Below the pieces are notes generated by a model that did no database searches, was not told where the DNA came from, and worked only from the letters and a program-made list of their open reading frames with translations. Below, piece by piece: positions 3,525 through 29,982 of a DNA stretch of 64,000 bases (position 1 is its first letter; each line of letters opens with the position of its first letter). This DNA comes from a virus. Location: positions 32,001 to 96,000 of IMG/VR virus record IMGVR_UViG_3300013947_000003. One strand, given 5' to 3'. A program made the position numbers and the translations under genes.

Positions 3525-4430
3525 TTAACAATTACAACTACCTGTAGTATAAGGATATCCATAATTATTGCAGCCACATCCATAAGGGTTTGGAACTACA
3601 TAAGCAGGAGAGGGAGAAGGTCTAACCTAACTTACTATATTAGCAGTCTATGCCTACTGAGAAGCTGCCAAAGCAAGTTGACTATTTTCCTATCTAAGAG
3701 CATCAATCTTATTCTGCATCTCTCTCATTTCTAACTAACAGAACTTATCATTAATAAGAGTAGTTTGCGCGGCTATAGCATTCTTTAAATCACAAGTCTA
3801 CTATGCAGTAGCATATGCTGTAGAAGAAAATCCTCTCTCAACAGAACTATTTACAAAATTTATAGCATTCTATAAAGTGTTAGTTTGATTTACATTAGAT
3901 AACTGATTCTCATAATTAGTTTTAGTTATAGAATCCTAAATACTGCAGCAACATTGTGCTAATTGACTGCCTAACTGACAATTTCCGCTCTAGATAGAAT
4001 TGATAATCTGTTGGCCTGTCATACCAACCTGACTACCCACAGTTTGTATAGAGGATTGTACTTGACCTATAGCAGTTTGAAGAGTATTTACATCACAATT
4101 TAAAGTAGTGGCAAGTTGACTTAAAGCCTAACCATTACCATTAATAGCCTGTAAAAGAACTTCTCTACCAAAATCATTATTCAATTGGTTAGGTATACCA
4201 TCAGCATTTCCACCAAACATACCATTACCTCTACCTCCCCAAAGCCAGAACATTATGATTACCCAAATCCACCACATGCCTCCACCTCCCCAAGCATCTT
4301 GGTTTTTAGAAGCATTTGTAAGCATTGCCATAAGATTAGGATCAATACCTTTATTCTGCATTAGACTAGCAATAAGAGCAGAGGAATCAAAGCCCTTATC
4401 TGCTGTATCAAAAACATAAGTTTTTTCCAT
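3525..4430 (-). CDS. membrane-anchored Gln/Asn-rich coiled-coil protein with Cys-rich C-terminus
   Basis: Track ORF 4128-4430 continues through 11 in-frame TAG to TAA 3525 (906 nt). It has a TM-like GGGGMWWIWVIIMFWLWGG segment and the tail ...YGCGCNNYGYPYTTGSCNC. Confidence 0.6.
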
Positions 4431-17421: not shown

Positions 17422-17486
17422 CGGTTCCTAGTAGATTCGAACTACTATCTTCCATTTCAGGAGTAATACCATTATACTAAGGAACC
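17422..17486 (-). tRNA. tRNA-like element with truncated anticodon arm (pseudo-tRNA?)
   Basis: Acceptor GGTTCCT/AGGAACC, a D arm near-identical to the suppressor's, and T arm AGTAG-TTCGAAT-CTACT. Only about 12 nt (tcc-tgaaat-gga) occupy the position of the 17-nt anticodon arm. Confidence 0.35.
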
Positions 17487-19945: not shown

Positions 19946-20402
19946 ATTACCCACTCCTCCCCACCCCTGGCGAGCCAGGGGGATATCCCCCGGGGGGCTA
20001 TATATCACAGTAGTCCCAACATGGCCCATACAGCCGAACATTGCTGCTATGGCCCAATTAATGCTTGCTAGTGTTCACTCAACTTCAGGAGTGAGGGAGC
20101 TGACCTATTCAGCCTTATAATTAACATGTTTCACTTAAAAACCATATAGGATATGAAAACAAAGCATTTCCTTATGGGGGCAAAGCAATAATTGCCTCAG
20201 CATTATTCTTTGCTGGGGCAATTGCATATGTCTTCATCATTTGGACATCCTCCAAAGATGAGGACTAATGCCCCATGTTGGGTTGCCAACACCCAACGTA
20301 TGTAGATAAAATTGGCCAACATTATTCATTCTCCCCATCTCCTCTTTTTATTATTAACCCAAACCTTCACACTGGGAATATAGTCTATCTAGACTGGTTA
20401 AA

Positions 20403-20891
20403 GTGTATAAAAAAATGCGATATATGTGGACGATAGAAAATGGGTACGGCCTGCTGCAAAAATGCAGCAATGCTGCAACCCTAGAAGGGGTCTTCACAGA
20501 AATTTTAGAAGAGATCCGGGAGCACTTTATAGTGTGCTCTATATGGACATCGTTTAGCGACAGGTATCCTATAAGGATACCTTTCACGGCAACTTCACTC
20601 CTCGGCGAATACTTCGCCGGGGAGGTGGTATATGATAAGGCGGAAAACCGCCTCATCATATATGAGGATGAATATTCTGCCCCCTCTAAAGAGGTGGCAA
20701 GACGGTGGTGCGAGGGGCCCACCAAACCCAAAGAGTTGCTCTTATATTGGAGCAACTCTCCATTTAGGGCAGATGTGCAGAGGGCCTACAGCCACACAGC
20801 TCTCTGTGTGGCATTCCTGGCCACGGGGGAAGTGGCCTCCTCATACGAGGAGGCGTGGAATATTGTTAGAGAGGCTGCTGAGCAGTCTTAA
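20403..20891 (+). CDS. hypothetical early protein
   Basis: Longest ORF in the G+C-richer block. Overlapping alternative-frame ORFs were judged to be shadows. Confidence 0.45.
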   Translation: MYKKMRYMWTIENGYGLLQKCSNAATLEGVFTEILEEIREHFIVCSIWTSFSDRYPIRIPFTATSLLGEYFAGEVVYDKAENRLIIYEDEYSAPSKEVARRWCEGPTKPKELLLYWSNSPFRADVQRAYSHTALCVAFLATGEVASSYEEAWNIVREAAEQS

Positions 20892-21212
20892 CAATATCCC
20901 CAGGATGAGCTCAAGAGCGATTGAATAAAAGGCCCTACAAAGCCTTTTACTTCACTCTTGAGTTCACCAAAGGTGGGTGGCCTGTTGGGTTTGTAGGCAC
21001 CCCAACATTAGACAAAAACCTACAGCACACTGCTCCCTCAGTAATATTCTATGCCCTCCATTAATTGGTTGTAGCCCTCAGTTTGCATATTGTATTATAT
21101 ATATGTAAACTTCTCTTTAGTTATGCATAGTTTCAGGTCATTCTTATCCATAGAATGGCTTGTTACTAATGCTGTATGTCTCGTTGATTTATTAACTCTT
21201 AACCTCAAAGAT

Positions 21213-21521
21213 ATGGAGTTACATAATTATACTCCTCACACAATCTCTTTGAATAATGGCACACAGTTCCCCTCTGAAGGGTTGGCTCGTGTGGCCAATA
21301 CATTCACAGAGTTTGTGGAAGGTATCTGTGAGGTACACTTTGGAGACATCCAAGGACTTCCTGAGCCTCAGGAAGGTGTCCTGTATATAGTGTCTGCACT
21401 TGTATTGTCTGCAGCTAAGGCTGCTGGCCGTACAGATTGTGTGGCACCTGCGACAGGACATCCTGATTGCATCCGTGATGCAAAAGGATTTATCCTGAGT
21501 GTGCCTGGCTTTGTTCGATAG
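21213..21521 (+). CDS. hypothetical early protein
   Basis: Internal ATG of track ORF 21090-21521: MELHNYTPHTISLNNG...GLPEPQEGVLYIVSALV. Ends in TAG. Confidence 0.55.
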   Translation: MELHNYTPHTISLNNGTQFPSEGLARVANTFTEFVEGICEVHFGDIQGLPEPQEGVLYIVSALVLSAAKAAGRTDCVAPATGHPDCIRDAKGFILSVPGFVR

Positions 21522-21636
21522 AATAGAGCCTTCACGGAGTTTTCACCTTGCAAAATAATGGGAGTTTTGTAAGGGCTTTCCTTGGCAACAGAATAAAGCC
21601 AGGTTCCCATAATGTTTAATTCATAATATTATAATA

Positions 21637-21882
21637 ATGTTAGCATTGTTACAATATAATGAAAGCGAGGTCTATAGCAGCAGCCTCTTTCTTAACAAAG
21701 AAGAGGCTAAACTGCAATTCGCCAAGCTCAAAGAAGAGTTTGCCAAAGAGGAAGGCAATACCTTCGAAGAACTTGGTGAGGGCCATTTTACATGGTGTTC
21801 TTGGGACAGCCTGGAATTCCAATATGTAAAATTGGTGGACCTCGGTCCCTCCTTAAGGGAATACTTTGGAGTAAACCTTTGA
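21637..21882 (+). CDS. hypothetical acidic early protein
   Basis: Track ORF. Confidence 0.5.
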   Translation: MLALLQYNESEVYSSSLFLNKEEAKLQFAKLKEEFAKEEGNTFEELGEGHFTWCSWDSLEFQYVKLVDLGPSLREYFGVNL

Positions 21883-22085
21883 GAACTTTGGGTTTATGCT
21901 TTCCCAAAGTATAGATAAAAAAGCACAATATTAAAAAACTTATATCCCTATGAGTTTCTTTTATTAAAAGTTTTAGATTAGGGACCTTGTTTTAATCTCG
22001 GTTTCACACCACTATATTATATAGTGTGTTATAGTGGTGGCTTTATTAAAGTATATCACACACTACCACCAAAACATATACATCT

Positions 22086-22232
22086 ATGGAAACATTTGAT
22101 GTTATGTGCCTCCTAACAGTATTGCTTATAATAGCAATTCTGGGAGGCATTGTGTTCCTCCTAGAGGCCACCCCACTGTGGAAGAAGTTTCAAAACTTCA
22201 TTCTCCACATATGGGGTGGAGAGGAAGACTAA
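22086..22232 (+). CDS. 48-aa single-TM peptide with acidic C-terminus
   Basis: Own translation: METFDVMCLLTVLLIIAILGGIVFLLEATPLWKKFQNFILHIWGGEED. Confidence 0.35.
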   Translation: METFDVMCLLTVLLIIAILGGIVFLLEATPLWKKFQNFILHIWGGEED

Positions 22233-22348
22233 CTCACTCTCCTCTCTCCTCACCTCTACTCCTCATTCACTTAATTCTAACCAAAACCTCCCAGGTAGTA
22301 AGGGTGTATTCCCAAGCTTATAAAGCTGTTAAGACCTGTTCAAAAATC

Positions 22349-22738
22349 ATGACAAAATTTAATTTTGCTTACAATCGTCTTCGTGAAGCCTACATGGCAT
22401 TCACACACAGCCGTTCGTACAACTCCTTTCAGGCATGGTATAATGAGTGCCACTACATAGATTGGGTGTGGGGGTATTATGGGGGAATTTTCGAAAGGGC
22501 GGACTACTATAGTAGTCCGCAAAAAGAAAGAGCGCAGAGGGAGTGGGAGAGCTTCCTCCTAAGGACCGCTAAGATATTTGATATCTTAGCGGACTGCACA
22601 GACTGGCACGAATCTGTGCCGTACTTCTATAAGAACGGAGACCCAGAGGCGACTCTCCGTCAATTCTTCCCAGAACTGGAAGAAGCAGACAGAATAAAGA
22701 GGGAATCCTCTTTAGGGAAGGACTACTTCCCATTCTAA
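22349..22738 (+). CDS. hypothetical early protein
   Basis: Internal ATG of track ORF 22106-22738. The upstream 81 codons look non-protein-like and overlap the TM peptide ORF. Confidence 0.5.
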   Translation: MTKFNFAYNRLREAYMAFTHSRSYNSFQAWYNECHYIDWVWGYYGGIFERADYYSSPQKERAQREWESFLLRTAKIFDILADCTDWHESVPYFYKNGDPEATLRQFFPELEEADRIKRESSLGKDYFPF

Positions 22739-22820
22739 TACTCCTAGAAAAAAACTAGTACCCCTAGAGTTTCTACATGAGTAGTTTTAAATAGGGGTTT
22801 CACTTAAATCCTATAAAACA

Positions 22821-23108
22821 ATGAAAAAAGGATTTTATGAGTTCAAAGAAGAACTCCTTCAGCAAATAGATGCTGAAATAGAAAATGCACCTCAACAGTC
22901 AATAACTGTTGAGGAATTTGAGGAATACCTCAACATCCACAATAAAGTAACTAAGTGTGTTGACACCATAGGGCTACTAAAGCTAGCCCAAACCTTTTAC
23001 AGGACACGCTTGTTTAGTGTTTGTAGTACCCCGGACTCCCCAACAACGTCTTCCATAGAGTACTATCTGGGGAAGCTCCAAGAAGTAAGGAGGGAGCTTT
23101 ATGGATGA
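22821..23108 (+). CDS. hypothetical early protein
   Basis: Track ORF, preceded by a hairpin plus the TTCACTTAAA motif. Confidence 0.5.
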   Translation: MKKGFYEFKEELLQQIDAEIENAPQQSITVEEFEEYLNIHNKVTKCVDTIGLLKLAQTFYRTRLFSVCSTPDSPTTSSIEYYLGKLQEVRRELYG

Positions 23109-23364
23109 GAGGCTCTATGAGTTATTGTTGGATTTGACAATCCACATGGCTCAAAGGAGATTCGATCAAAGGATCTCCAAAAGAGATCTCTCTACATGGG
23201 ATCTCTATGAGATATATGAGGAGCTAGACCTCCTCTATAACATGAAACGCACTGAATGGCCTACATTAGTGCGCCTTTCAAAAAAGTACATTGTGTACTT
23301 ATTAAACCAAGAAGGGACAGATAAACTGTTCTTTAAGTCCCTCCTGCAAAACCTAAAAGTATGA
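23101..23364 (+). CDS. hypothetical early protein
   Basis: Track ORF with an overlapping junction. Confidence 0.5.
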   Translation: MDERLYELLLDLTIHMAQRRFDQRISKRDLSTWDLYEIYEELDLLYNMKRTEWPTLVRLSKKYIVYLLNQEGTDKLFFKSLLQNLKV

Positions 23365-23603
23365 GCGAATACTGGGAATGTCTCCAAAAGGATATCAAGG
23401 AGACCAAAGCAGCTGTGGAGGACCTCAACAAACATCTTGAGAAAATCCGCCGTCTAAAAAGAGCTACTCCACAAGAACACGTGGAGAAACAAGAGGAGTT
23501 AAAACAAATAGAGCGAGAGCTCTCTAATGACCTAGACTACTATGAGTTGAAACTCCAAGACCTCACAAAAGAAGAGTGTATGTACGAGTACTTCTGCTCT
23601 TAA
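23361..23603 (+). CDS. hypothetical coiled-coil early protein
   Basis: Track ORF with an ATGA junction. It is followed by the 10-bp hairpin cttggtgggc/gcccaccaag. Confidence 0.5.
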   Translation: MSEYWECLQKDIKETKAAVEDLNKHLEKIRRLKRATPQEHVEKQEELKQIERELSNDLDYYELKLQDLTKEECMYEYFCS

Positions 23604-23699
23604 AATCTGAGCAATTCACTTGGTGGGCTTAAATAGTATGGGCCCACCAAGGCTTTGTATAAGTCAACACATACTACCACATCTAAAACTTATAATACA

Positions 23700-23903
23700 A
23701 TGGAAAAGTTTTCAGATGACCCTATTTGGGTAACAAAAGATGGAGTTAAACTCCATCTTTCTGAGATGTCAACCAGGCATCTCATTAACAGTTTAAACCT
23801 TCTAAGGATTAACTGTGGGTGGAGAGAGCGCTTTGTAGTTCCCATGCTTCGGGAACTTAAAAGGCGTAACATGTTATTTGACTGGTGGTTCTATAATCTC
23901 TAG
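23700..23903 (+). CDS. hypothetical early protein
   Basis: ATG inside track ORF 23655-23903. Ends in TAG. Confidence 0.45.
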   Translation: MEKFSDDPIWVTKDGVKLHLSEMSTRHLINSLNLLRINCGWRERFVVPMLRELKRRNMLFDWWFYNL

Positions 23904-23976
23904 TTAGCATAGAACTAATACCTTCCTAAGTTCTCAAGTTCTTAAAGGGAAGGTTCACTTAAAACGCATAACAACA

Positions 23977-24261
23977 ATGGAAAACAAAACAAATGGAAGG
24001 TGTTTAGCTATCATAGATAGCATCACCTATAATCTTAGGATGCTAGTAGCCACACCGAAACATCCTAATGGAGGTGTATTCTATGTGTGGGCAGCAATAC
24101 AAGCCCACTATCCATATGAGGTACACTTCATTACAGAGTACCAAGGGATGTACCTTGTAGATCCTCGGGTACTCTGCAAAGCAGATAGGAGTACCATAGA
24201 TAATATGGAACTAGAGGCTAAAAGCCTTAGAATCTTAGTATACGAACAAAAAATAAAATAA
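23977..24261 (+). CDS. hypothetical early protein
   Basis: Track ORF, preceded by a hairpin plus the GGTTCACTTAAAAC motif. Confidence 0.5.
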   Translation: MENKTNGRCLAIIDSITYNLRMLVATPKHPNGGVFYVWAAIQAHYPYEVHFITEYQGMYLVDPRVLCKADRSTIDNMELEAKSLRILVYEQKIK

Positions 24262-24319
24262 TATATAACACTCTAACTAAAGCTTGTAGGCTGCTCTAGT
24301 GTGGAACCTTCAAATAATT

Positions 24320-24613
24320 ATGAACATACAGCGTTCCTTCACACTTCTTATCTACTCCATCCTGGCAAATAAGCCCCACACACTCTTTGCAGATAGCTTA
24401 TATCCTGTTAGAGGGATGGCTTTTAAACAAGGAGGCCACCTCTATACCTCAAAGATACATCTGGGGTATATGTTCTACCTAAGCACCCCATACTCAAATG
24501 GTAGGTGCTTTGACCTGCTTGTAATAAGGCAGGGAGAGCAGGTTGATGAACACTGGGGAATAGTGCTTCCCGTAGACACTTTAAAATCTATTATCAATTA
24601 CCTAAAATACTAA
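24320..24613 (+). CDS. hypothetical early protein
   Basis: First ATG within track ORF 24299-24613. Confidence 0.45.
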   Translation: MNIQRSFTLLIYSILANKPHTLFADSLYPVRGMAFKQGGHLYTSKIHLGYMFYLSTPYSNGRCFDLLVIRQGEQVDEHWGIVLPVDTLKSIINYLKY

Positions 24614-24624
24614 CCACCAAAACA

Positions 24625-25083
24625 ATGAAGTTAATAATCCGGCTTCAAAGTAACGTGAATACGTTGCTTACAAACCATTCCCTAGATGGGAAAAGGTTTC
24701 ATAATCATGTGGTTTTCTATCTTAACCTTCATAAAAAGATAGAGCAAAACAGATTCAATCTGTTTAAGACGGCGCTTGTTAATAAACTTAACAGGTGCTG
24801 TCCTGAGTTTGAGGATGTATCCATCAAGCAGGTTAAACACCATGCTTATGATGGGGCAAAAACAATTAACCTCAAAAACCAGCTTTGGGCACTAAATGCC
24901 GCAAGTGAGGAATATATGCTAGAGTTAGTTCTCAAATACATCGTCGATATACTGCGCCTTAATTGTACGCTAAGCAACTATGAAGGCATTGGCGAAAAAG
25001 CCTTTATAATAGCAGATACAGATGATAACATGTTTGAGTATATACTCAATACATATAAAAACGGGGTCATTATAGACGCCTAG
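24625..25083 (+). CDS. hypothetical early protein
   Basis: Track ORF. Ends in TAG. Confidence 0.5.
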   Translation: MKLIIRLQSNVNTLLTNHSLDGKRFHNHVVFYLNLHKKIEQNRFNLFKTALVNKLNRCCPEFEDVSIKQVKHHAYDGAKTINLKNQLWALNAASEEYMLELVLKYIVDILRLNCTLSNYEGIGEKAFIIADTDDNMFEYILNTYKNGVIIDA

Positions 25084-25108
25084 TATCTGTAATCAAATAT
25101 CTAAAATA

Positions 25109-25285
25109 ATGGATAAAGAAAAGAGGCTTGAAGAGCTGCGGTTTGATATAATGCGGCAAGAACTTATCAGTGGATACCTAAATGAAAGACTGATAGAAGT
25201 ATCAAAGAAACTCAAAGAACTGCGTAAAGAAGAAGATGACCTTGAAAGGCAAATCTTCGAAGAACTTGAAGCAGAAGAATACTAA
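25109..25285 (+). CDS. 58-aa coiled-coil protein
   Basis: Own translation MDKEKRLEELRFDIMRQELISGYLNERLIEVSKKLKELRKEEDDLERQIFEELEAEEY. Below the track length cut-off. Confidence 0.4.
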   Translation: MDKEKRLEELRFDIMRQELISGYLNERLIEVSKKLKELRKEEDDLERQIFEELEAEEY

Positions 25286-25470
25286 ACCATCCTATATAAT
25301 AGTGCCCTTGAGGAGTAAAATCCTTGAGGGCATTATTTTTTTCTGCCCGCTTGCGCGTGCAAGTCACTCTTTCCCATGCATGGAAGGCAAGGTTGCCAAT
25401 GAGAGGTTCAACCACCTTCCACATCTTTTCACTTAAAACCTTATGGTGTATAGGTTAACCGTATACTGTT

Positions 25471-25758
25471 ATGTCTAAGTCAATTCTTAGCGGCAAAGTT
25501 TATGCAGGTTCTTGGAATCTCGACTCCACTGAAAACCTCAGCCAAGAGGAACTCAATGCCTTCGAGAAGGCCACGGTGGTAGATTCCATGTATGGACTTT
25601 CTTGCTGCTTTCTAATGCATAGCGGCGAGAAGATCTACGTCCCCATGGCCACCCAAAGTGGGGCCAAAGCAGGGGATGTCCTTGACTTGCACACCATGAA
25701 GAAACTCACCCTCTCCAAATCAGGAGAGGAAGATATTCTTCGTATCATGGAGGGATAA
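25471..25758 (+). CDS. hypothetical early protein
   Basis: Track ORF, last gene of the G+C-richer block. Confidence 0.5.
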   Translation: MSKSILSGKVYAGSWNLDSTENLSQEELNAFEKATVVDSMYGLSCCFLMHSGEKIYVPMATQSGAKAGDVLDLHTMKKLTLSKSGEEDILRIMEG

Positions 25759-25783
25759 TTAAACCCCCTCCTTCCGCTCTACA

Positions 25784-25823
25784 TACCCTCCTGGGAATTA
25801 TTCCTGGGAGGGTATTTTTTTTT
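25784..25823 (+). terminator. rho-independent terminator
   Basis: taccctcc...ggagggta stem followed by a T9 run (25815-25823). Confidence 0.8.
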
Positions 25824-25904
25824 CAGTCACCTCTCTCATCTAAGTTTCCATTACTATTTATTAATCTATATTAACATTAATTAATAGTAATAACATTACT
25901 TTAT

Positions 25905-25975
25905 ATTGGTATATTACCAATTATACCATACTTTTTATTGGTTTATTACCAATTTATACTATTGGTATGTTACCA
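25905..25975. repeat. three palindromic operator-like sites TTGGTA-N3-TACCAA
   Basis: ttggtatattaccaa 25905-25919, ttggtttattaccaa 25937-25951, ttggtatgttaccaa 25961-25975. Confidence 0.55.
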
Positions 25976-26157
25976 ATTTTATCACAACAACCTCACTATA
26001 TGTGTGGGTTATGTTGTTGAATATCAGTGAGTTACAGATGTCCTCACTCCTCCCCACAGTTGGTGGTGCACCGAGTAACTTATAAAAAATCAAAAGGATA
26101 AGTTAAATTATAGCTTTTTTTACCCGCTATTAATTCTCCTCCTTTTTGGTTTTTTAT

Positions 26158-26188
26158 TTGCACACCTTAAAATTTATATATAATTTTG
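26158..26188 (+). promoter_or_regulatory. Bacteroidota-type promoter (-33 TTTG / -7 TAnnTTTG)
   Basis: TTTG at 26158-26161 and TAATTTTG at 26181-26188, 19-nt spacer, 10 nt upstream of tRNA-Leu. Confidence 0.5.
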
Positions 26189-26198
26189 TATAAAATAA

Positions 26199-26284
26199 GC
26201 CCTTATGATGGAATTGGTAGACATGAGAGACTTAAAATCTCTTGGCCATTATTGGCTGTGTGGGTTCGAGTCCCACTAGGGGTA
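26199..26284 (+). tRNA. tRNA-Leu (anticodon TAA), long variable arm
   Basis: Acceptor GCCCTTA/TAGGGGT. Anticodon stem AGAGA/TCTCT with loop CT-TAA-AA. Long variable arm. T arm GTGGG-TTCGAGT-CCCAC. Confidence 0.85.
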
Positions 26285-26316
26285 CAATTAACAGTATTAA
26301 CTTAAAACTAAACAAA

Positions 26317-26781
26317 ATGGAGTACATTTACAAGATGACTTTAGTGGCAGGTGGAACCACTATCTGTACAAGAAAAGTAAGAACAAAAGAAGAAGGTGAA
26401 TTTCAAGCAAAAGAAATTCTAAAAAACAGACAAGATGTAGTAAAAGTGGAATACTATATCAAAGAAGGAGAAAAAAATAAATGTAATCCTTCGAAAGAAG
26501 AAAAAGTATATAACTACATACTCAAAACGTACTCACAGTTATACGAAACTCCCCTTAAAAAATACCCTAATGTATCTACATTAGCGGTTTTTGGTGCTAC
26601 ATCTAAAATAGTAGATGATATAGAGAGCTATCTTAATATATCTTTTAATGGAGATAGGACATCTTTAGAAGAAGGAGCTCTCTTCATACGCAAACATATA
26701 GAAGACCTCTATAATGCAATAGAAAAGTATAAAATGGACCTCTATAATGCCGACATAGTCGATATTATAGACACATATTAA
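26317..26781 (+). CDS. hypothetical protein
   Basis: First ATG after tRNA-Leu, in the frame of track ORF 26242-26781. Confidence 0.55.
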   Translation: MEYIYKMTLVAGGTTICTRKVRTKEEGEFQAKEILKNRQDVVKVEYYIKEGEKNKCNPSKEEKVYNYILKTYSQLYETPLKKYPNVSTLAVFGATSKIVDDIESYLNISFNGDRTSLEEGALFIRKHIEDLYNAIEKYKMDLYNADIVDIIDTY

Positions 26782-26947
26782 ATGACGTCCTACTTTCTTG
26801 TAGGAACATGTACTATGTTACAGCAGTACTAAAAAAGTCCCAGAAGATGTTGGTGACAAAGCAACCTTCTTAAAATCTATCTGCTACATCGACACTTTGT
26901 CCGTATGAGATGTATGATAGAGGTTAGAGACAATTGGTACTCTAACA

Positions 26948-27044
26948 GACTATATAGTTTATGTGTTAAAACATTCTTATATTACCTATGTGAAAAGTGC
27001 ATGGGGTTATAAGAAAGAAGTAAGTTCGCAACTTACTGTAGTCG
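26948..27044 (+). tRNA. tRNA-like gene with 32 nt between the anticodon-stem halves
   Basis: Acceptor GACTATA/TGTAGTC, D stem GTTT/AAAC, T arm GTAAG-TTCGCAA-CTTAC. Anticodon stem TTCTT (26974-78) and AAGAA (27011-15) enclose 32 nt instead of 7. Confidence 0.4.
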
Positions 27045-27063
27045 CACTTCATTTTGTAATAAT

Positions 27064-27183
27064 AGGTATATAGTTTAACTAAAGTAAAACACCATTACAG
27101 TCTATTTTTAGAGTGTTAGTTTGATTTTTTGTTGGCCATTGTTTTCAGTAATGGAGATATAGGTTCAAATCCTATTATACCTT
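27064..27183 (+). tRNA. tRNA-like gene with 44-nt insertion flanked by CCATT direct repeat
   Basis: Acceptor AGGTATA/TATACCT, D stem GTTT/AAAC, T arm ATAGG-TTCAAAT-CCTAT. CCATT occurs at 27092 and again at 27136, and AATGG at 27150. The loop next to the second copy is gttttcagt. Confidence 0.45.
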
Positions 27184-27243
27184 CTATATAAGTATCGTTT
27201 TTAGATTGTTAAAACTAGTGGTACGTGAGTATAGCTAGTATAT

Positions 27244-27317
27244 GGTCCTTTAGCTTAGTTGGTTAGAGCACCTGACTCATAATCAGGGAGTCGTAGGTTC
27301 AAGCCCTACAAGGACCA
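27244..27317 (+). tRNA. tRNA-Met/Ile2 type (anticodon CAT)
   Basis: Canonical cloverleaf GGTCCTT...CCTGA-CTCATAA-TCAGG...GTAGG-TTCAAGC-CCTAC-AAGGACC-A. Confidence 0.9.
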
Positions 27318-27363
27318 CTTCATTGTATTGTTGGTTTTAAGTGAAACAATTGGTTATTAACCA

Positions 27364-27431
27364 GGCTCTTTAGTTTAATGTAAAACATTCTATAGTATAG
27401 AAAGATGTAGGGTCATATCCTACAAGAGCTG
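27364..27431 (+). tRNA. tRNA-like gene with 5-nt anticodon loop
   Basis: Acceptor GGCTCTT/AAGAGCT. T arm GTAGG-GTCATAT-CCTAC. The anticodon arm TTCTA-tagta-TAGAA is 15 nt instead of 17. Confidence 0.35.
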
Positions 27432-27490
27432 CAAAAATTAAGTGTTTTATAACATTTTGATTAACATTTTGGTCATATTCACTTATTTTA

Positions 27491-27527
27491 CCTTGCGGTT
27501 CGTGAGAATAGCAAGGTTTTATTTTTT
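27491..27527 (+). terminator. hairpin plus T-run after tRNA cluster
   Basis: ccttgc-ggttcgtgagaata-gcaagg followed by ttttatttttt. The loop resembles that of a second hairpin at 27214-27239. Confidence 0.55.
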
Positions 27528-27547
27528 AACTTAAAACACAAAAGATT

Positions 27548-27736
27548 ATGGAAAAATGGATAATTAAATTAAGTAATAACGCATTTGCTTATATAGCAAA
27601 TAACACCTTATATATCAAATATAACTTTGAAGAAGCATCTATGTTTGATACTATAGGTGATGCATGGAAAGCTGCAATATTTGTAAACAAATTGCTAAAT
27701 ACAAATGCTGTAGCAGTATCTTACTATGTACATTAA
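27548..27736 (+). CDS. hypothetical protein
   Basis: Track ORF. Confidence 0.5.
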   Translation: MEKWIIKLSNNAFAYIANNTLYIKYNFEEASMFDTIGDAWKAAIFVNKLLNTNAVAVSYYVH

Positions 27737-27937
27737 AGAAAGGAAATTCTATAAATCACTGTTTGGTATATTACTATAAATATACCAGAAGAGTTAACTT
27801 CTTTAAAAAATCTCTAGCAGATAGTTCATGCAGTAAGGTGTGAGGGCTCAACTCCCTAGAAGAAAACATAGTAGAGGAGTTTTCGATAAATTGTTTTAAA
27901 ATCTACTATCTCGAATATTCATTTAAAATTAATATAT

Positions 27938-28129
27938 ATGAAACCTACTAAAAGTCAATTAAAAAGTTTAAATTTTTGTGTTATTACCTTAGGAGAACCT
28001 TTCTATGGTAACATTAATAATAAAGATGAAGTTCAGGAGTATCTAGATGAGCATTTAGAATGGGCTATAGATGCTGCTGAACAAAAAATAGATATAATGA
28101 CTAATTTCTTAAAACAACTAGACAAATGA
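27938..28129 (+). CDS. hypothetical protein
   Basis: Track ORF. Confidence 0.5.
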   Translation: MKPTKSQLKSLNFCVITLGEPFYGNINNKDEVQEYLDEHLEWAIDAAEQKIDIMTNFLKQLDK

Positions 28130-28446
28130 AAAGATGGACAGAAGAGGAAAAAAAAGCCATCATAGATGGGGTTTCCTCACATCCCGAGAATCTAACAAAA
28201 TGTTTTATCACTTTATCTTCACAAATGGATAGAAGCTTCTGTGCAATATGCCAAATGTGGTATCAAATGCAAAATCCAAAAAGTCCTCATTATATAGGAA
28301 CAAGAACTGCATTTGTACTATTAGGCAAAAGCAGTGTCTATAGAGGAAAAGTAAACAGAAACAACTCTAAAGAAACAATTAACGTTAAACCAACACTTTT
28401 ATATAAAGTAATAAATGCAATTAAAAAAATATGGAACCAAAAGTAA
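28126..28446 (+). CDS. Myb/SANT-like DNA-binding protein candidate
   Basis: The MKRWTEEEKKAIIDGV pattern. Track ORF with an ATGA junction. Confidence 0.4.
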   Translation: MKRWTEEEKKAIIDGVSSHPENLTKCFITLSSQMDRSFCAICQMWYQMQNPKSPHYIGTRTAFVLLGKSSVYRGKVNRNNSKETINVKPTLLYKVINAIKKIWNQK

Positions 28447-28820
28447 GTATTACATTTATAGTACCAGGTGCTCAAATGTACTCAGAACAAAAATGTAAAG
28501 ACAACAAAGCATTCGAACAAACAATTGTTAACACAGAATACTACACAGGAAGAGGAAAGGAGAAGAAGAAAAACAAGGAAAAACTTGTTATATATTCTCG
28601 AGGAAACAAGCCTGCAAAACATCATTTGAACATATGTAAAGAAACATACGATCATATGATAATGCCTGAAGGTATTCCTACTATAGAAAACTGGACCAAA
28701 AAACATTCAAGATATGTATGGTCTCAGTATTCTAAACAGCAACGTTTGGAAACACATATAAAACTTATAGCAAAAGAGCTTAATGCTCTTAGCTTTACAT
28801 ATGAAATATTAGATGACTAG
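28431..28820 (+). CDS. hypothetical basic protein
   Basis: Track ORF. Ends in TAG, which overlaps the start of the next gene. Confidence 0.5.
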   Translation: MEPKVSITFIVPGAQMYSEQKCKDNKAFEQTIVNTEYYTGRGKEKKKNKEKLVIYSRGNKPAKHHLNICKETYDHMIMPEGIPTIENWTKKHSRYVWSQYSKQQRLETHIKLIAKELNALSFTYEILDD

Positions 28821-29982
28821 AGAAGAAGTATTAAAAGAGGTATTAAGTTTAGAGGGTAAAAACTTCCTTTTTGAAATGGCTACAGGAGTTGGTAAAACAA
28901 GAATAGCTATAGAAAAGATAAAAACCCTTAATATTAAAACACTGCTTATAGTAGTACCAAGAAATGTTTTAAAACAAACTTGGGAAAATGAGTTTAATAA
29001 GTGGTGGAAAGATAATAATCTTAATATCTCTTTTACTACATATATCTCCTTCCCTAAGTATGCAGGAAAGTGGGATGCAGTTATTTATGATGAATGTCAT
29101 CATCTATCAGAAAGATGCCGTGATGTTCTTCCTAAATTTAACTCTTCCCACTCCCTCTTGCTCTCTGCTACTGTAAACAAGGAACTTAAAAAAGAATTAA
29201 CATATTGTTTTAATCCTTTAGTACAATATAAAATTAATCTTAAAGAAGCAATAGGAGACATATTACCTGATCCTATAGTTTATTTAATTCCTTTAGAATT
29301 AGACAATAAAATAAAGTCTGAAACTATCTATAAGAATAAAAATAAACCCGGTAAAATGATTACTATAGACTATTCTAAAAGATGGGAATATAGGAACATT
29401 AAAACTCCTATAGCCATCAAATGTACTGAGGCACAATATAACTTGGATATAAGTAATCTTATAGATTGGTATAAAACCAAATATATGAATACTCGTAACT
29501 CTGTTATAAAAAACATATGGTTAATGAAATGTAACGAACGCCTTAAATGGCTTAGTACACGTAAAACCACTATAGTATATAACATATTAAAAAAGTTCAA
29601 AAACAAAAGAACTTTAGTATTCTGTAGTAGTATTTTACAAACTGAAGCATTGGGAAAATATTGCATTAACAGCCAAAATAGAAATACATCTAAATATCTA
29701 CAAGACTTTAATGATGGTAAAATAAACCATATTACAGCATGTAATGTGCTTAATGAAGGCGTTAATCTTCATAACTGTCAAATAGGTATATATGCAAATC
29801 TTAATAGTTCTGAAACTATAGTGGCTCAAAGATGTGGTAGACTTCTAAGACATCCTAATCCTATTATTATAATACCTTATTATAAGAATACCAGGGAAGA
29901 GGAGTTAATGAAGAAAATGCTTGAAAACTATAATCCTGAATTAATTAAAACCGTATCATTAGATGACTATCTCAATAAATGA
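28813..29982 (+). CDS. superfamily 2 (DEAH/SNF2-like) helicase
   Basis: Motif I MATGVGKT, motif II DECHH, motif VI QRCGRLLR. Confidence 0.8.
   Translation: MTREEVLKEVLSLEGKNFLFEMATGVGKTRIAIEKIKTLNIKTLLIVVPRNVLKQTWENEFNKWWKDNNLNISFTTYISFPKYAGKWDAVIYDECHHLSERCRDVLPKFNSSHSLLLSATVNKELKKELTYCFNPLVQYKINLKEAIGDILPDPIVYLIPLELDNKIKSETIYKNKNKPGKMITIDYSKRWEYRNIKTPIAIKCTEAQYNLDISNLIDWYKTKYMNTRNSVIKNIWLMKCNERLKWLSTRKTTIVYNILKKFKNKRTLVFCSSILQTEALGKYCINSQNRNTSKYLQDFNDGKINHITACNVLNEGVNLHNCQIGIYANLNSSETIVAQRCGRLLRHPNPIIIIPYYKNTREEELMKKMLENYNPELIKTVSLDDYLNK

Follow-up and report, generated by a model that had tools for sequence, protein, structure and literature searches.

The 64,000-nucleotide (nt) stretch considered here, called the window, comprises bases 32001-96000 of IMG/VR record IMGVR_UViG_3300013947_000003, a 96.9-kilobase (kb) virus with direct terminal repeats, and represents a TAG-recoded crAss-like phage. 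It encodes four small RNAs (elements 1 to 4) with the shape of a transfer RNA (tRNA) but an altered anticodon arm. From the comparison of sequences, these elements are read, with moderate confidence, as non-decoding tRNA mimics that are under selection and arose from phage tRNA genes whose anticodon arm was remodelled. This reading is ranked first, followed by spliced tRNAs, by tRNA-like punctuation acting in cis and, last, by decay. The tRNA frame is, as far as the alignments tell, under structural selection, and the elements most likely cannot read codons, because their anticodon arm forms a closed or extended helix without a 7-nt loop. Non-decoding RNAs derived from tRNAs are known in outline from phage tRNA clusters; the present elements, and the hairpin family found with them, are new variants.

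Elements 1 (26948-27044), 2 (27064-27183) and 3 (27364-27431, 68 nt) lie on the plus strand around a canonical tRNA with anticodon CAT. The first-pass annotation of this DNA had described them as neighbours with good acceptor, D and T arms and aberrant anticodon arms; all three are present as described, and their frames are kept in relatives. Element 4 (17423-17486, minus strand, 64 nt) was recognized by a frame scan and by its fold, between an amber suppressor tRNA and a tRNA-Arg. Like canonical tRNAs (RF00005), the elements possess, in the order typical of a tRNA, a 7-base-pair (bp) acceptor stem, a 4-bp D stem, a 4-nt variable region and a 5-bp T stem with a 7-nt loop. Unlike them, they have a closed or extended anticodon helix, no U33 and no conserved anticodon; a 5-bp anticodon stem closed by a 7-nt loop with U33 and a conserved anticodon is found in none of elements 1 to 3. 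The arms of these three are closed helices in every homologue, with 8 + 6 bp in element 1, 7 bp plus a variable domain in element 2 and 6-7 bp plus a triloop in element 3. G18 and G19 are absent from all three D loops (ATGTGTTA, AACTAAAGTA and AATGTA), and the T54-A58 pair is absent from elements 1 and 3, only element 2 having a canonical T loop (TTCAAAT).

Tools for tRNA detection treat the elements unevenly. At default settings, ARAGORN rejects elements 1, 2 and 3. With the Rfam tRNA model, whose gathering cut-off is 29 bits, element 3 passes at 44.9 bits in spite of its shortened anticodon loop, element 2 is matched at its T arm only (15.5 bits) and element 1 is not matched. The first-pass annotation had proposed ARAGORN with introns allowed; in this mode element 2 is called at the default threshold as tRNA(tca) with a 46-nt intron at position 33/34, and at a relaxed threshold element 1 becomes Asn(gtt) with a 25-nt intron and element 3 Thr(agt) with a 4-bp stem. 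The anticodons called in this way disagree among orthologues: GTT versus ATT for element 1 and TCA versus GTT for element 2.

Four close relatives carry the cluster. Three of them, L002 (from IMG/VR, 90% identical in the helicase), L243 (97%) and L245 (90%), were reached through the neighbouring helicase, by a protein-anchored search and by exact-protein look-ups; the fourth, L227, came from a metagenome pattern scan. DNA patterns derived from the elements mostly gave chance matches in IMG/VR and metagenomes, the only true homologues being L002/L004 and L227; the same scans also gave unrelated closed-arm tRNA-like genes in L058 and L172. With blastn against GenBank phages, only the canonical tRNA-Leu and tRNA-Met were matched and none of the elements.

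Element 1 has its acceptor stem at 26948-26954/27037-27043, its D arm at 26957-26972 and its T arm at 27020-27036. The place of the anticodon arm is taken by a hairpin at 26974-27015, in which an 8-bp stem is followed by an internal loop and then by a 6-bp stem capped by a 9-nt apical loop (26991-26999). Its stem halves TTCTT (26974-26978) and AAGAA (27011-27015) are 32 nt apart, as had been noticed before. The single-sequence fold is more stable than that of shuffled sequences (z = -5.1). In an alignment of four sequences, 99.2% of the cells of the cloverleaf with its long arm are paired, and three pairs have changed on both sides: pair 1-72, from G-C to A-U, and two pairs of the inner 6-bp stem (CCTATG/CATGGG versus CTTACG/CGTAAG). 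The 8-bp stem TTCTTATA/TATAAGAA is invariant across the alignment, and the internal loops, which face each other, are not conserved (TTA/GT versus TG/G versus TA/G).

Three sequences have the 9-nt apical loop of element 1, which is nearly deleted in L245. A search of public runs for the region 25500-29500 listed no RNA run and four contig sets of unrecorded library type, all from one study. In contigs of two of these runs (X3 and X4), a 6-nt deletion at 26994 would leave a triloop; these contigs show the variant of a relative, in which the content of the cluster is altered as well. Because the apex is nearly lost in L245 and shortened in the public-run contigs, it is dispensable, the conserved part being a helix. 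An anticodon-like role of the apical loop is ruled out by its deletion in relatives. The T loop (TTCGCAA) is non-canonical at positions 54 and 58. Element 1 has its T stem, GTAAG/CTTAC, in common with the tRNA-Ile(GAT) of L243 and the tRNA-Val(TAC) of L227, and the frames of the elements are 64-77% identical to canonical, AT-rich tRNAs of the relatives; both facts fit an origin from phage tRNA genes.

The slot of element 1 is occupied in L243 by that canonical tRNA-Ile(GAT) (4106-4176), with the same T stem, and a possible remnant of a tRNA 5' half lies just upstream of it. The tRNA cluster seems, from such comparisons, to turn over by cassette-like replacement.

In element 2, the acceptor stem (27064-27070/27176-27182), the D arm (27073-27090) and the T arm (27159-27175) frame a 7-bp anticodon stem, 27092-27098 with 27148-27154, that encloses a variable domain of 49 nt. 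Six sequences were aligned, two of them copies from L227. Every cell of the frame is paired (100%), five pairs (12 cells) have changed on both sides, and the covariation score is reached by none of 500 shuffles; the single-sequence fold has a z-score of -2.2. Directly above the 5-bp stem, RNAalifold adds two pairs (A-U, and C-G, U-A or U-G), which sit at the would-be tRNA positions 32-38 and 33-37 and extend the stem to the 7-bp helix; the 5' end was misaligned in this calculation, of which only the rows of the anticodon stem were used. Among homologues, the 5-bp stem encloses between 19 and 69 nt, and L002, L245 and L227 carry an additional 17-nt hairpin within the D loop. The bases beside the 3' strand vary among orthologues (GTTTTCAGT, GTTTTCTGGT, ACAATCAT, ATAATCAT, ACAATCGT), and neither UUC nor UCA is conserved as an anticodon.

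The first-pass annotation had explained element 2 by an insertion bounded by a CCATT direct repeat, whose excision together with one repeat would leave a UUC (Glu) loop. The repeat itself is there, at 27092-27096 and 27136-27140, 44 nt from start to start and followed by gttttcagt-aatgg. As an insertion boundary it does not hold. The pairing with the first copy is found in 100% of the cells versus 82.8% for the second, which would close the 9-nt loop; L227 has a mutated second copy, and in L002 and L245 that copy is mismatched. The repeat is hence a peculiarity of this lineage, and the Glu loop is not borne out, the second CCATT and the proposed loop both being variable (GTTTTCAGT versus GTTTTCTGGT versus ACAATCAT). 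A role of element 2 as a TGA suppressor was also ruled out: TGA ends many genes of this phage, and reading it as sense brings no gain in open reading frames (ORFs).

Short inserts in tRNAs of a recoded gut phage call to mind the Lak megaphages, whose tRNAs contain conserved short "enigmatic" introns with an unknown splicing mechanism (Devoto et al., bioRxiv 10.1101/356790). The two cases are alike in several respects: both concern TAG-recoded gut phages of Bacteroidales hosts, in which short conserved insertions in the anticodon region lengthen the tRNA genes, both are without a known splicing mechanism, and both are missed by bacterial tRNA finders. They differ in that Lak tRNAs have an identifiable anticodon and that intron-less alleles defined their excision points, whereas the present elements have neither a conserved anticodon nor a 7-nt loop, the positions flanking the inserts pair and covary, and the arm of one element is shortened. 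Among the relatives, no insert-less allele of the same gene was found, the gene in the element 1 slot of L243 being a different, canonical tRNA-Ile.

It is nevertheless conceivable, and judged improbable, that the elements are working tRNAs with short introns removed in the Lak manner, by protein splicing or otherwise, ligation then restoring the anticodon loop. The Lak precedent (bioRxiv 10.1101/356790) speaks for it, as do the intron-mode calls for element 2 (TCA, 46 nt) and, at the relaxed threshold, element 1 (GTT, 25 nt). RNA ligase genes are enriched in phages that carry theta ribozymes (PMC10879173), RtcB may come from the host, and the hairpin shape of the inserts could serve as a recognition feature. 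In L002 and L245, moreover, the bases following the stem of element 2 (A-T-GTT-A) resemble a tRNA-Asn half-loop. Against splicing, the anticodon and the splice position shift between orthologues, with a C at position 33 in the window and in L243, and pairs 32-38 and 33-37, which splicing would require to be open, covary in Watson-Crick fashion. TGA being a genuine stop in this phage, an opal suppressor would do harm; the relatives carry a hairpin insertion in the D loop too, and the arms of elements 3 and 4 are too short to have anything removed.

The machinery for such splicing was looked for as well. No bulge-helix-bulge motif, that is, two 3-nt bulges separated by a 4-bp helix, occurs in the arms. 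The inserts, 19-69 nt long, are no group I introns, no Rfam intron family being matched at E-values up to 10. In the whole phage genome, Pfam gave no match to a tRNA intron endonuclease, an RNA ligase, RtcB or an enzyme adding CCA, the families searched including PF01974, PF09414 and PF01139; PF09511 (T4 Rnl1) was without a match too, and its control was matched nowhere either, so that this blank is uninformative. To our knowledge, no bacterial tRNA-splicing endonuclease is known.

Element 3 shows the opposite alteration, a shortened arm. The short loop had been pointed out earlier, and the arm does read TTCTA-TAGTA-TAGAA; in the minimum-energy fold (z = -3.1 against shuffles) it becomes a palindromic 6-bp stem with an AGU triloop (TTCTAT-AGT-ATAGAA). 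The relatives have two extra bases (TA), which give a 7-bp stem with a GUA triloop; the indel therefore preserves the palindrome and not a 7-nt loop. The T loop (GTCATAT) is non-canonical. In element 4, the anticodon arm has a 3-bp stem and a 6-nt loop (tcc-tgaaat-gga), and 3 of 65 positions differ from the L002 genome (G001).

Conservation in related phages had been named as a check, and the elements are kept. Between the window and L002, identity is 86% for element 1, 79% for the frame of element 2 and 96% for element 3, compared with 88% for tRNA-Met; the values for hairpins 1 and 2, described below, are 87% and 96%. The spacers adjoining the elements are only 56-63% identical and contain indels of tens of bases. 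Since the elements fall in the range of the true tRNA while the spacers lie far lower, they are conserved to the same degree as a bona fide tRNA. Their stems include G-U pairs, which makes the structure specific to the plus-strand RNA.

These data bear on the least probable of the explanations, namely that the elements are functionless tRNA duplicates in decay, recognizable because they are recent. The T and D loops are non-canonical, the insert lengths vary, the T stem of the element 3 relatives has an A-C mismatch, and the cluster turns over rapidly, with a canonical tRNA-Ile(GAT) in the element 1 slot of L243 and a gene content that differs among relatives. Decay would, however, not be expected to leave compensatory double changes preserving every helix of elements 1 and 2 (99-100% pairing), an identity equal to that of a true tRNA and far above the spacers, persistence of the same elements in lineages with 90% identical helicases, and arm indels that always leave a helix. 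Of the options offered earlier (a novel short-intron or processing system, decoy mimics, or decayed genes), decay is hence unlikely and the repeat-bounded intron with a Glu loop unsupported, and the decoy mimic is the one favoured by the comparative evidence.

Several observations weigh against the interpretation as non-decoding mimics. Covariation was assessed on 4-6 sequences from few lineages, and with so few close homologues the counts are small and partly linked by phylogeny. The A-C mismatch just mentioned, at T-stem pair 53-61, looks like relaxed constraint. If the extended pairing of element 2 opened in L002 and L245, the 5' side of the arm there (A-U-GUU-A) would form a canonical tRNA-Asn half-loop, and element 2 may descend from an ancestral intron-bearing tRNA. 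Finally, RtcB was found in the control genome, that of Bacteroides thetaiotaomicron, and could thus be supplied by the host.

The elements were compared with other known classes of tRNA-shaped RNA. In phage T4, RNAC and RNAD have tRNA-like ends and are processed by RNase P. They are RNAs of the tRNA cluster whose function is still unknown (PMC9697503). The elements resemble these RNAs (also called species 1 and 2), compared here by description, in being non-coding, non-decoding RNAs of tRNA-cluster origin in a lytic phage; elements 1 to 3 are interleaved with tRNA-Met between tRNA-Leu and the terminator. The T4 species are about 120-140 nt long and do not form full cloverleaf frames, and their expression has been shown. 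The tRNA-like domain of transfer-messenger RNA (tmRNA), including its permuted form, is likewise tRNA-shaped, without an anticodon and with extra sequence at the anticodon arm, and tmRNA is encoded in the same cluster in the related phages cr273_1 and L227. The elements differ from it in having a normal D stem, inserts of only 19-69 nt, no tag reading frame, no Rfam tmRNA match and no G3-U70, their 3-70 pairs being C-G, G-C or A-U, and C-G. ARAGORN and Rfam found no tmRNA in the window. Two further candidates were discarded: the inserts are unique in the genome, which rules out copies of a dispersed mobile hairpin, and no Rfam ribozyme family occurs in the window, a result obtained without a descriptor search specific to theta ribozymes.

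The tRNA-Leu, an ORF of 154 amino acids, elements 1 and 2, hairpin 1, tRNA-Met and element 3 may all belong to a single transcript, which would end at the terminator formed by hairpin 2. The host RNase P and a 3'-end nuclease could then release the elements like tRNAs; this is proposed because the acceptor/T-arm minihelix is intact. The CCA end is not encoded, so it would probably be added by the host enzyme. The last step is the weakest: through the acceptor/T-arm half, the elements might engage a tRNA-binding factor of the host or the phage in trans, as competitive ligands or decoys; such a factor could be a tRNA-targeting defence nuclease or an enzyme modifying or charging tRNA. A trans-acting decoy role is a conjecture, made for the sole reason that the acceptor/T-arm half is the conserved part.

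That same half is what RNase P and RNase Z recognize, and an alternative would be a role in cis only, where the elements are cleavage sites of a polycistronic early transcript and the excised RNAs have no role of their own. Comparable situations are the tRNA punctuation of mitochondria and 3'-end processing of the mascRNA type. One apparent unit, with an ORF and two tRNAs, lies between a promoter-like box and a terminator hairpin, only the acceptor/T-arm half is strictly kept, and in other phages a related hairpin located 2-13 nt 5' of tRNAs suggests a processing architecture. The proposal is, however, even less plausible than splicing: the three marks fall within 480 nt, where no ORF lies between them that could be separated, and the true tRNAs of the unit would already provide cleavage sites. 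A bare cleavage signal needs neither the D arm nor the extended anticodon helix, which are also conserved and covarying, and element 4 sits between two tRNAs of another island.

Two hairpins accompany the cluster on the plus strand. Hairpin 1 (27214-27239, core GGUACGUGAGUAUAG) lies 4 nt 5' of tRNA-Met, and hairpin 2 (27490-27528), with the exact core GGTTCGTGAGAATAG followed by a T run, resembles an intrinsic terminator at the end of the cluster. A pair of hairpins with a common loop had been reported at 27214-27239 and 27491-27516; they exist, and the report understated them, since they belong to a large covarying family. Both consist of an outer stem, a G-A mismatch, the pairs G-U, U-A, U-A (or A-U) and C-G, and a GUGA tetraloop. 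Hairpin 1, with the apex pairs G-U/U-A/A-U/C-G, is a variant member of the family alignment, and the A/U difference between the two copies is compensated (TAC/GTA versus TTC/GAA). The outer stem of hairpin 1 shows a compensated change from G-C to U-A in L002, L227 and L245; hairpin 2 has a GGGA tetraloop in L002, which is still GNRA. The apex was rejected by eye as a sarcin-ricin, loop E or K-turn motif, the A/U difference covarying as a Watson-Crick pair.

Hairpin 2 folds into 7 + 4 bp at -14.2 kcal/mol (z = -4.5) and is followed by TTTTATTTTTT, as in an intrinsic terminator; a simple terminator scan omits it, as the loop is limited there to 3-8 nt. With intrinsic terminators it shares the stable stem and the T run at the end of a transcription unit. 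It departs from them in its 14-nt apex module, which is identical to the letter across otherwise unrelated phages and also occurs without a T run just 5' of tRNA genes. From the sequences, the hairpin is interpreted as serving as a terminator and as a tRNA leader, with a conserved apex for recognition.

The family was searched for in IMG/VR and in a set of prokaryote genomes with the exact 15-mer of hairpin 2 as the query. Its core in Bacteroidales phages, GGUUCGUGAGAAUAG, sits inside strongly covarying stems. Among the matches listed from IMG/VR, 70 of 83 distinct ones have at least 6 flanking bp, with quite different stem sequences. Of the 122 matches in prokaryote genomes, 33 have at least five flanking pairs, mostly in Bacteroidales assemblies and in a few Clostridia metagenome-assembled genomes (among those title-checked); the others have 0-3 pairs, as by chance, and serve as an internal control. 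In an alignment of 81 sequences, 283 cells of the outer stem have changed on both sides, compared with 96.6 ± 8.7 in shuffles (0 of 500), and all slid controls score far lower than the true outer stem. Selection of these sequences used the apex only, and the stems therefore count as independent evidence. Among the matches listed, a T-run tail follows the hairpin in 31 of 69 family members, a tRNA or tRNA-like frame begins 2-13 nt 3' of it in 14 of 68 (0.37 expected), and several phages contain arrays with about one hairpin per 200 nt. The motif matches no Rfam family, and a full-text literature search with the core sequence found no relevant paper; the family is apparently undescribed.

A wider reading can be given only tentatively and is rather unlikely to hold as a whole. 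It joins two claims: that the elements belong to a widespread, undescribed class of anticodon-less phage tRNA mimics, kept because the acceptor/T-arm half binds a host factor attacking or sensing tRNAs (an anticodon nuclease, for instance, or some other defence directed at tRNAs) and neutralises it, with the variable arms, for example the hairpin-CUUACAA module of related phages, tuning the specificity; and that the GGUUCGUGAGAAUAG hairpin is a new module, recognized by a protein or an RNase, that organizes termination and processing of the tRNA arrays in Bacteroidales phages.

The usual explanations for phage tRNA genes are codon usage, recoding and the replacement of tRNAs destroyed by host defences. 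Conserved tRNA-shaped RNAs that do not decode suggest that phages exploit the tRNA fold in yet another way, possibly as a decoy, a scaffold or a handle for processing; the phages concerned belong to one of the most abundant virus groups of the gut. Such elements are passed over by standard annotation pipelines or mislabelled as intron-bearing or undetermined tRNAs, and inferences on suppressors and codon supply in recoded phages can therefore be wrong; the apparent "opal suppressor with intron", element 2, is almost certainly not one. The hairpin with its conserved apex offers an easily searched marker of transcript ends and tRNA arrays in Bacteroidales phages and may also mark an RNA-binding factor.

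Unusual tRNA frames are found beyond this cluster. In 1.2 Mb of gut-phage DNA, a strict frame scan gave 191 tRNA frames, against one in the reversed sequence, and 69 of them are 93-160 nt long; this set includes loci that were chosen for such frames, and a few of the long frames are artefacts that run across a hairpin or a pair of adjacent tRNAs. Upstream of the same helicase module as in the window, the more distant relatives L247 (3540-3969), L250 (5495-5783) and L252 (437-2017), with a helicase identity of 57-60%, carry two to five tRNA frames of 106-137 nt. In these frames the stem encloses a variable domain, which nearly always contains a hairpin (RGUAUC...GAUACU) followed by UACAA; the sequence CUUACAA found there is presumably that of the anticodon loop of tRNA-Val(UAC). 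Three orthologues from the distant relatives receive three different isotypes from ARAGORN, and their D arm is one that we take to be of the tRNA-Glu type.

Other phages offer related cases. In cr273_1 (L001, NC_055904), the stretch 2518-2892 holds a near-threshold permuted tmRNA (46.2 bits, the cut-off being 47) and, after it, a tRNA-like gene of 68 nt (Rfam tRNA, 53.6 bits), whose arm ACACAC-TT-GTGTGT is closed; in the annotation of NC_055904, the entire stretch is entered as one tmRNA. A tmRNA-like start, GGGGCTACTAGG..., is also present in the cluster of L227. L103, L011, L015, L032, L036, L040, L055, L065 and other IMG/VR contigs, apparently marine, contain a family of tRNA-like genes of 111-136 nt (AGCTCTATAGTTTAAAAAGTAAAACATTCTCC...) with an insert of 47-72 nt inside a TTCTC/GAGAA stem (Rfam tRNA, 39-42 bits), as well as elements of 63-66 nt for which the tmRNA model is matched at its two ends only (44-54 bits). 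L256 (3130-3262), L288, L310 and L357 have gut-phage tRNAs of about 119-133 nt whose anticodon region is split by a T-arm-like minihelix (GGTTGAGAGTTCGAGTCTCTCAAG...), resembling the intron of the Lak tRNA-Thr. In the literature, tRNA-like candidates receive general mentions in viral RNA-structure screens.

The nearest GenBank relatives of the phage, judged by its canonical tRNAs, are the crAss-like phages cr272_1 and cr273_1 (Suoliviridae). Its late genes are open only with TAG as sense; TGA terminates many genes, and reading it as sense gives zero gain in ORF length. Four ordinary tRNAs are found in the window by default ARAGORN and Rfam. Two of them, a suppressor with anticodon CTA and tRNA-Arg(TCT), are on the minus strand near 17.1-17.6 kb. 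The other two are canonical and on the plus strand: tRNA-Leu(TAA) at 26199-26285 (54.3 bits), the first gene of the cluster, and the tRNA with anticodon CAT at 27244-27318 (73.1 bits), specific for Met or possibly Ile2.

The cluster forms the head of the replication module, upstream of the helicase and a DnaB-like gene. A Bacteroidetes-type -7 promoter-like box, TAATTTTG (26181-26188, plus strand), was found by pattern match 10 nt 5' of tRNA-Leu and is kept in L243 and L245, and the next plus-strand box does not occur before 27622; with 89 such boxes found against 98 expected, a single match is not significant by itself. The box may mark the start of the tRNA/tRNA-like transcription unit. The 154-amino-acid ORF (26317-26781, plus strand), read from the sequence between tRNA-Leu and element 1, is also called as a gene in L243 and L245. 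This ORF and its neighbours have zero matches in PHROG, Pfam and Atlas; a nuclease cassette (GIY-YIG or other) beside the remodelled tRNAs was considered and, on this basis, rejected.

Directly upstream of the cluster, the region 20000-26000 is a block of about 40% guanine plus cytosine (GC) in a 30% GC genome, coinciding with a strand switch and with the minimum of the cumulative GC skew. The orthologue of the CAT tRNA has the anticodon GAT (Ile) in L002 (4443-4518) and in L227 (minus strand), with matching changes in the anticodon stem. Because of these orthologues, the CAT gene may encode a lysidine-modified tRNA-Ile2, reading AUA, rather than tRNA-Met, which would suit a phage of 30% GC. 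In the spacer between this tRNA and element 3 (27319-27363), a conserved loop GGTTTTAAGTGAA is flanked by stems that are partly compensated in relatives. On the 3' side of both element 1 and tRNA-Met stands CACTTCATT, which may be a shared 3'-trailer signal.

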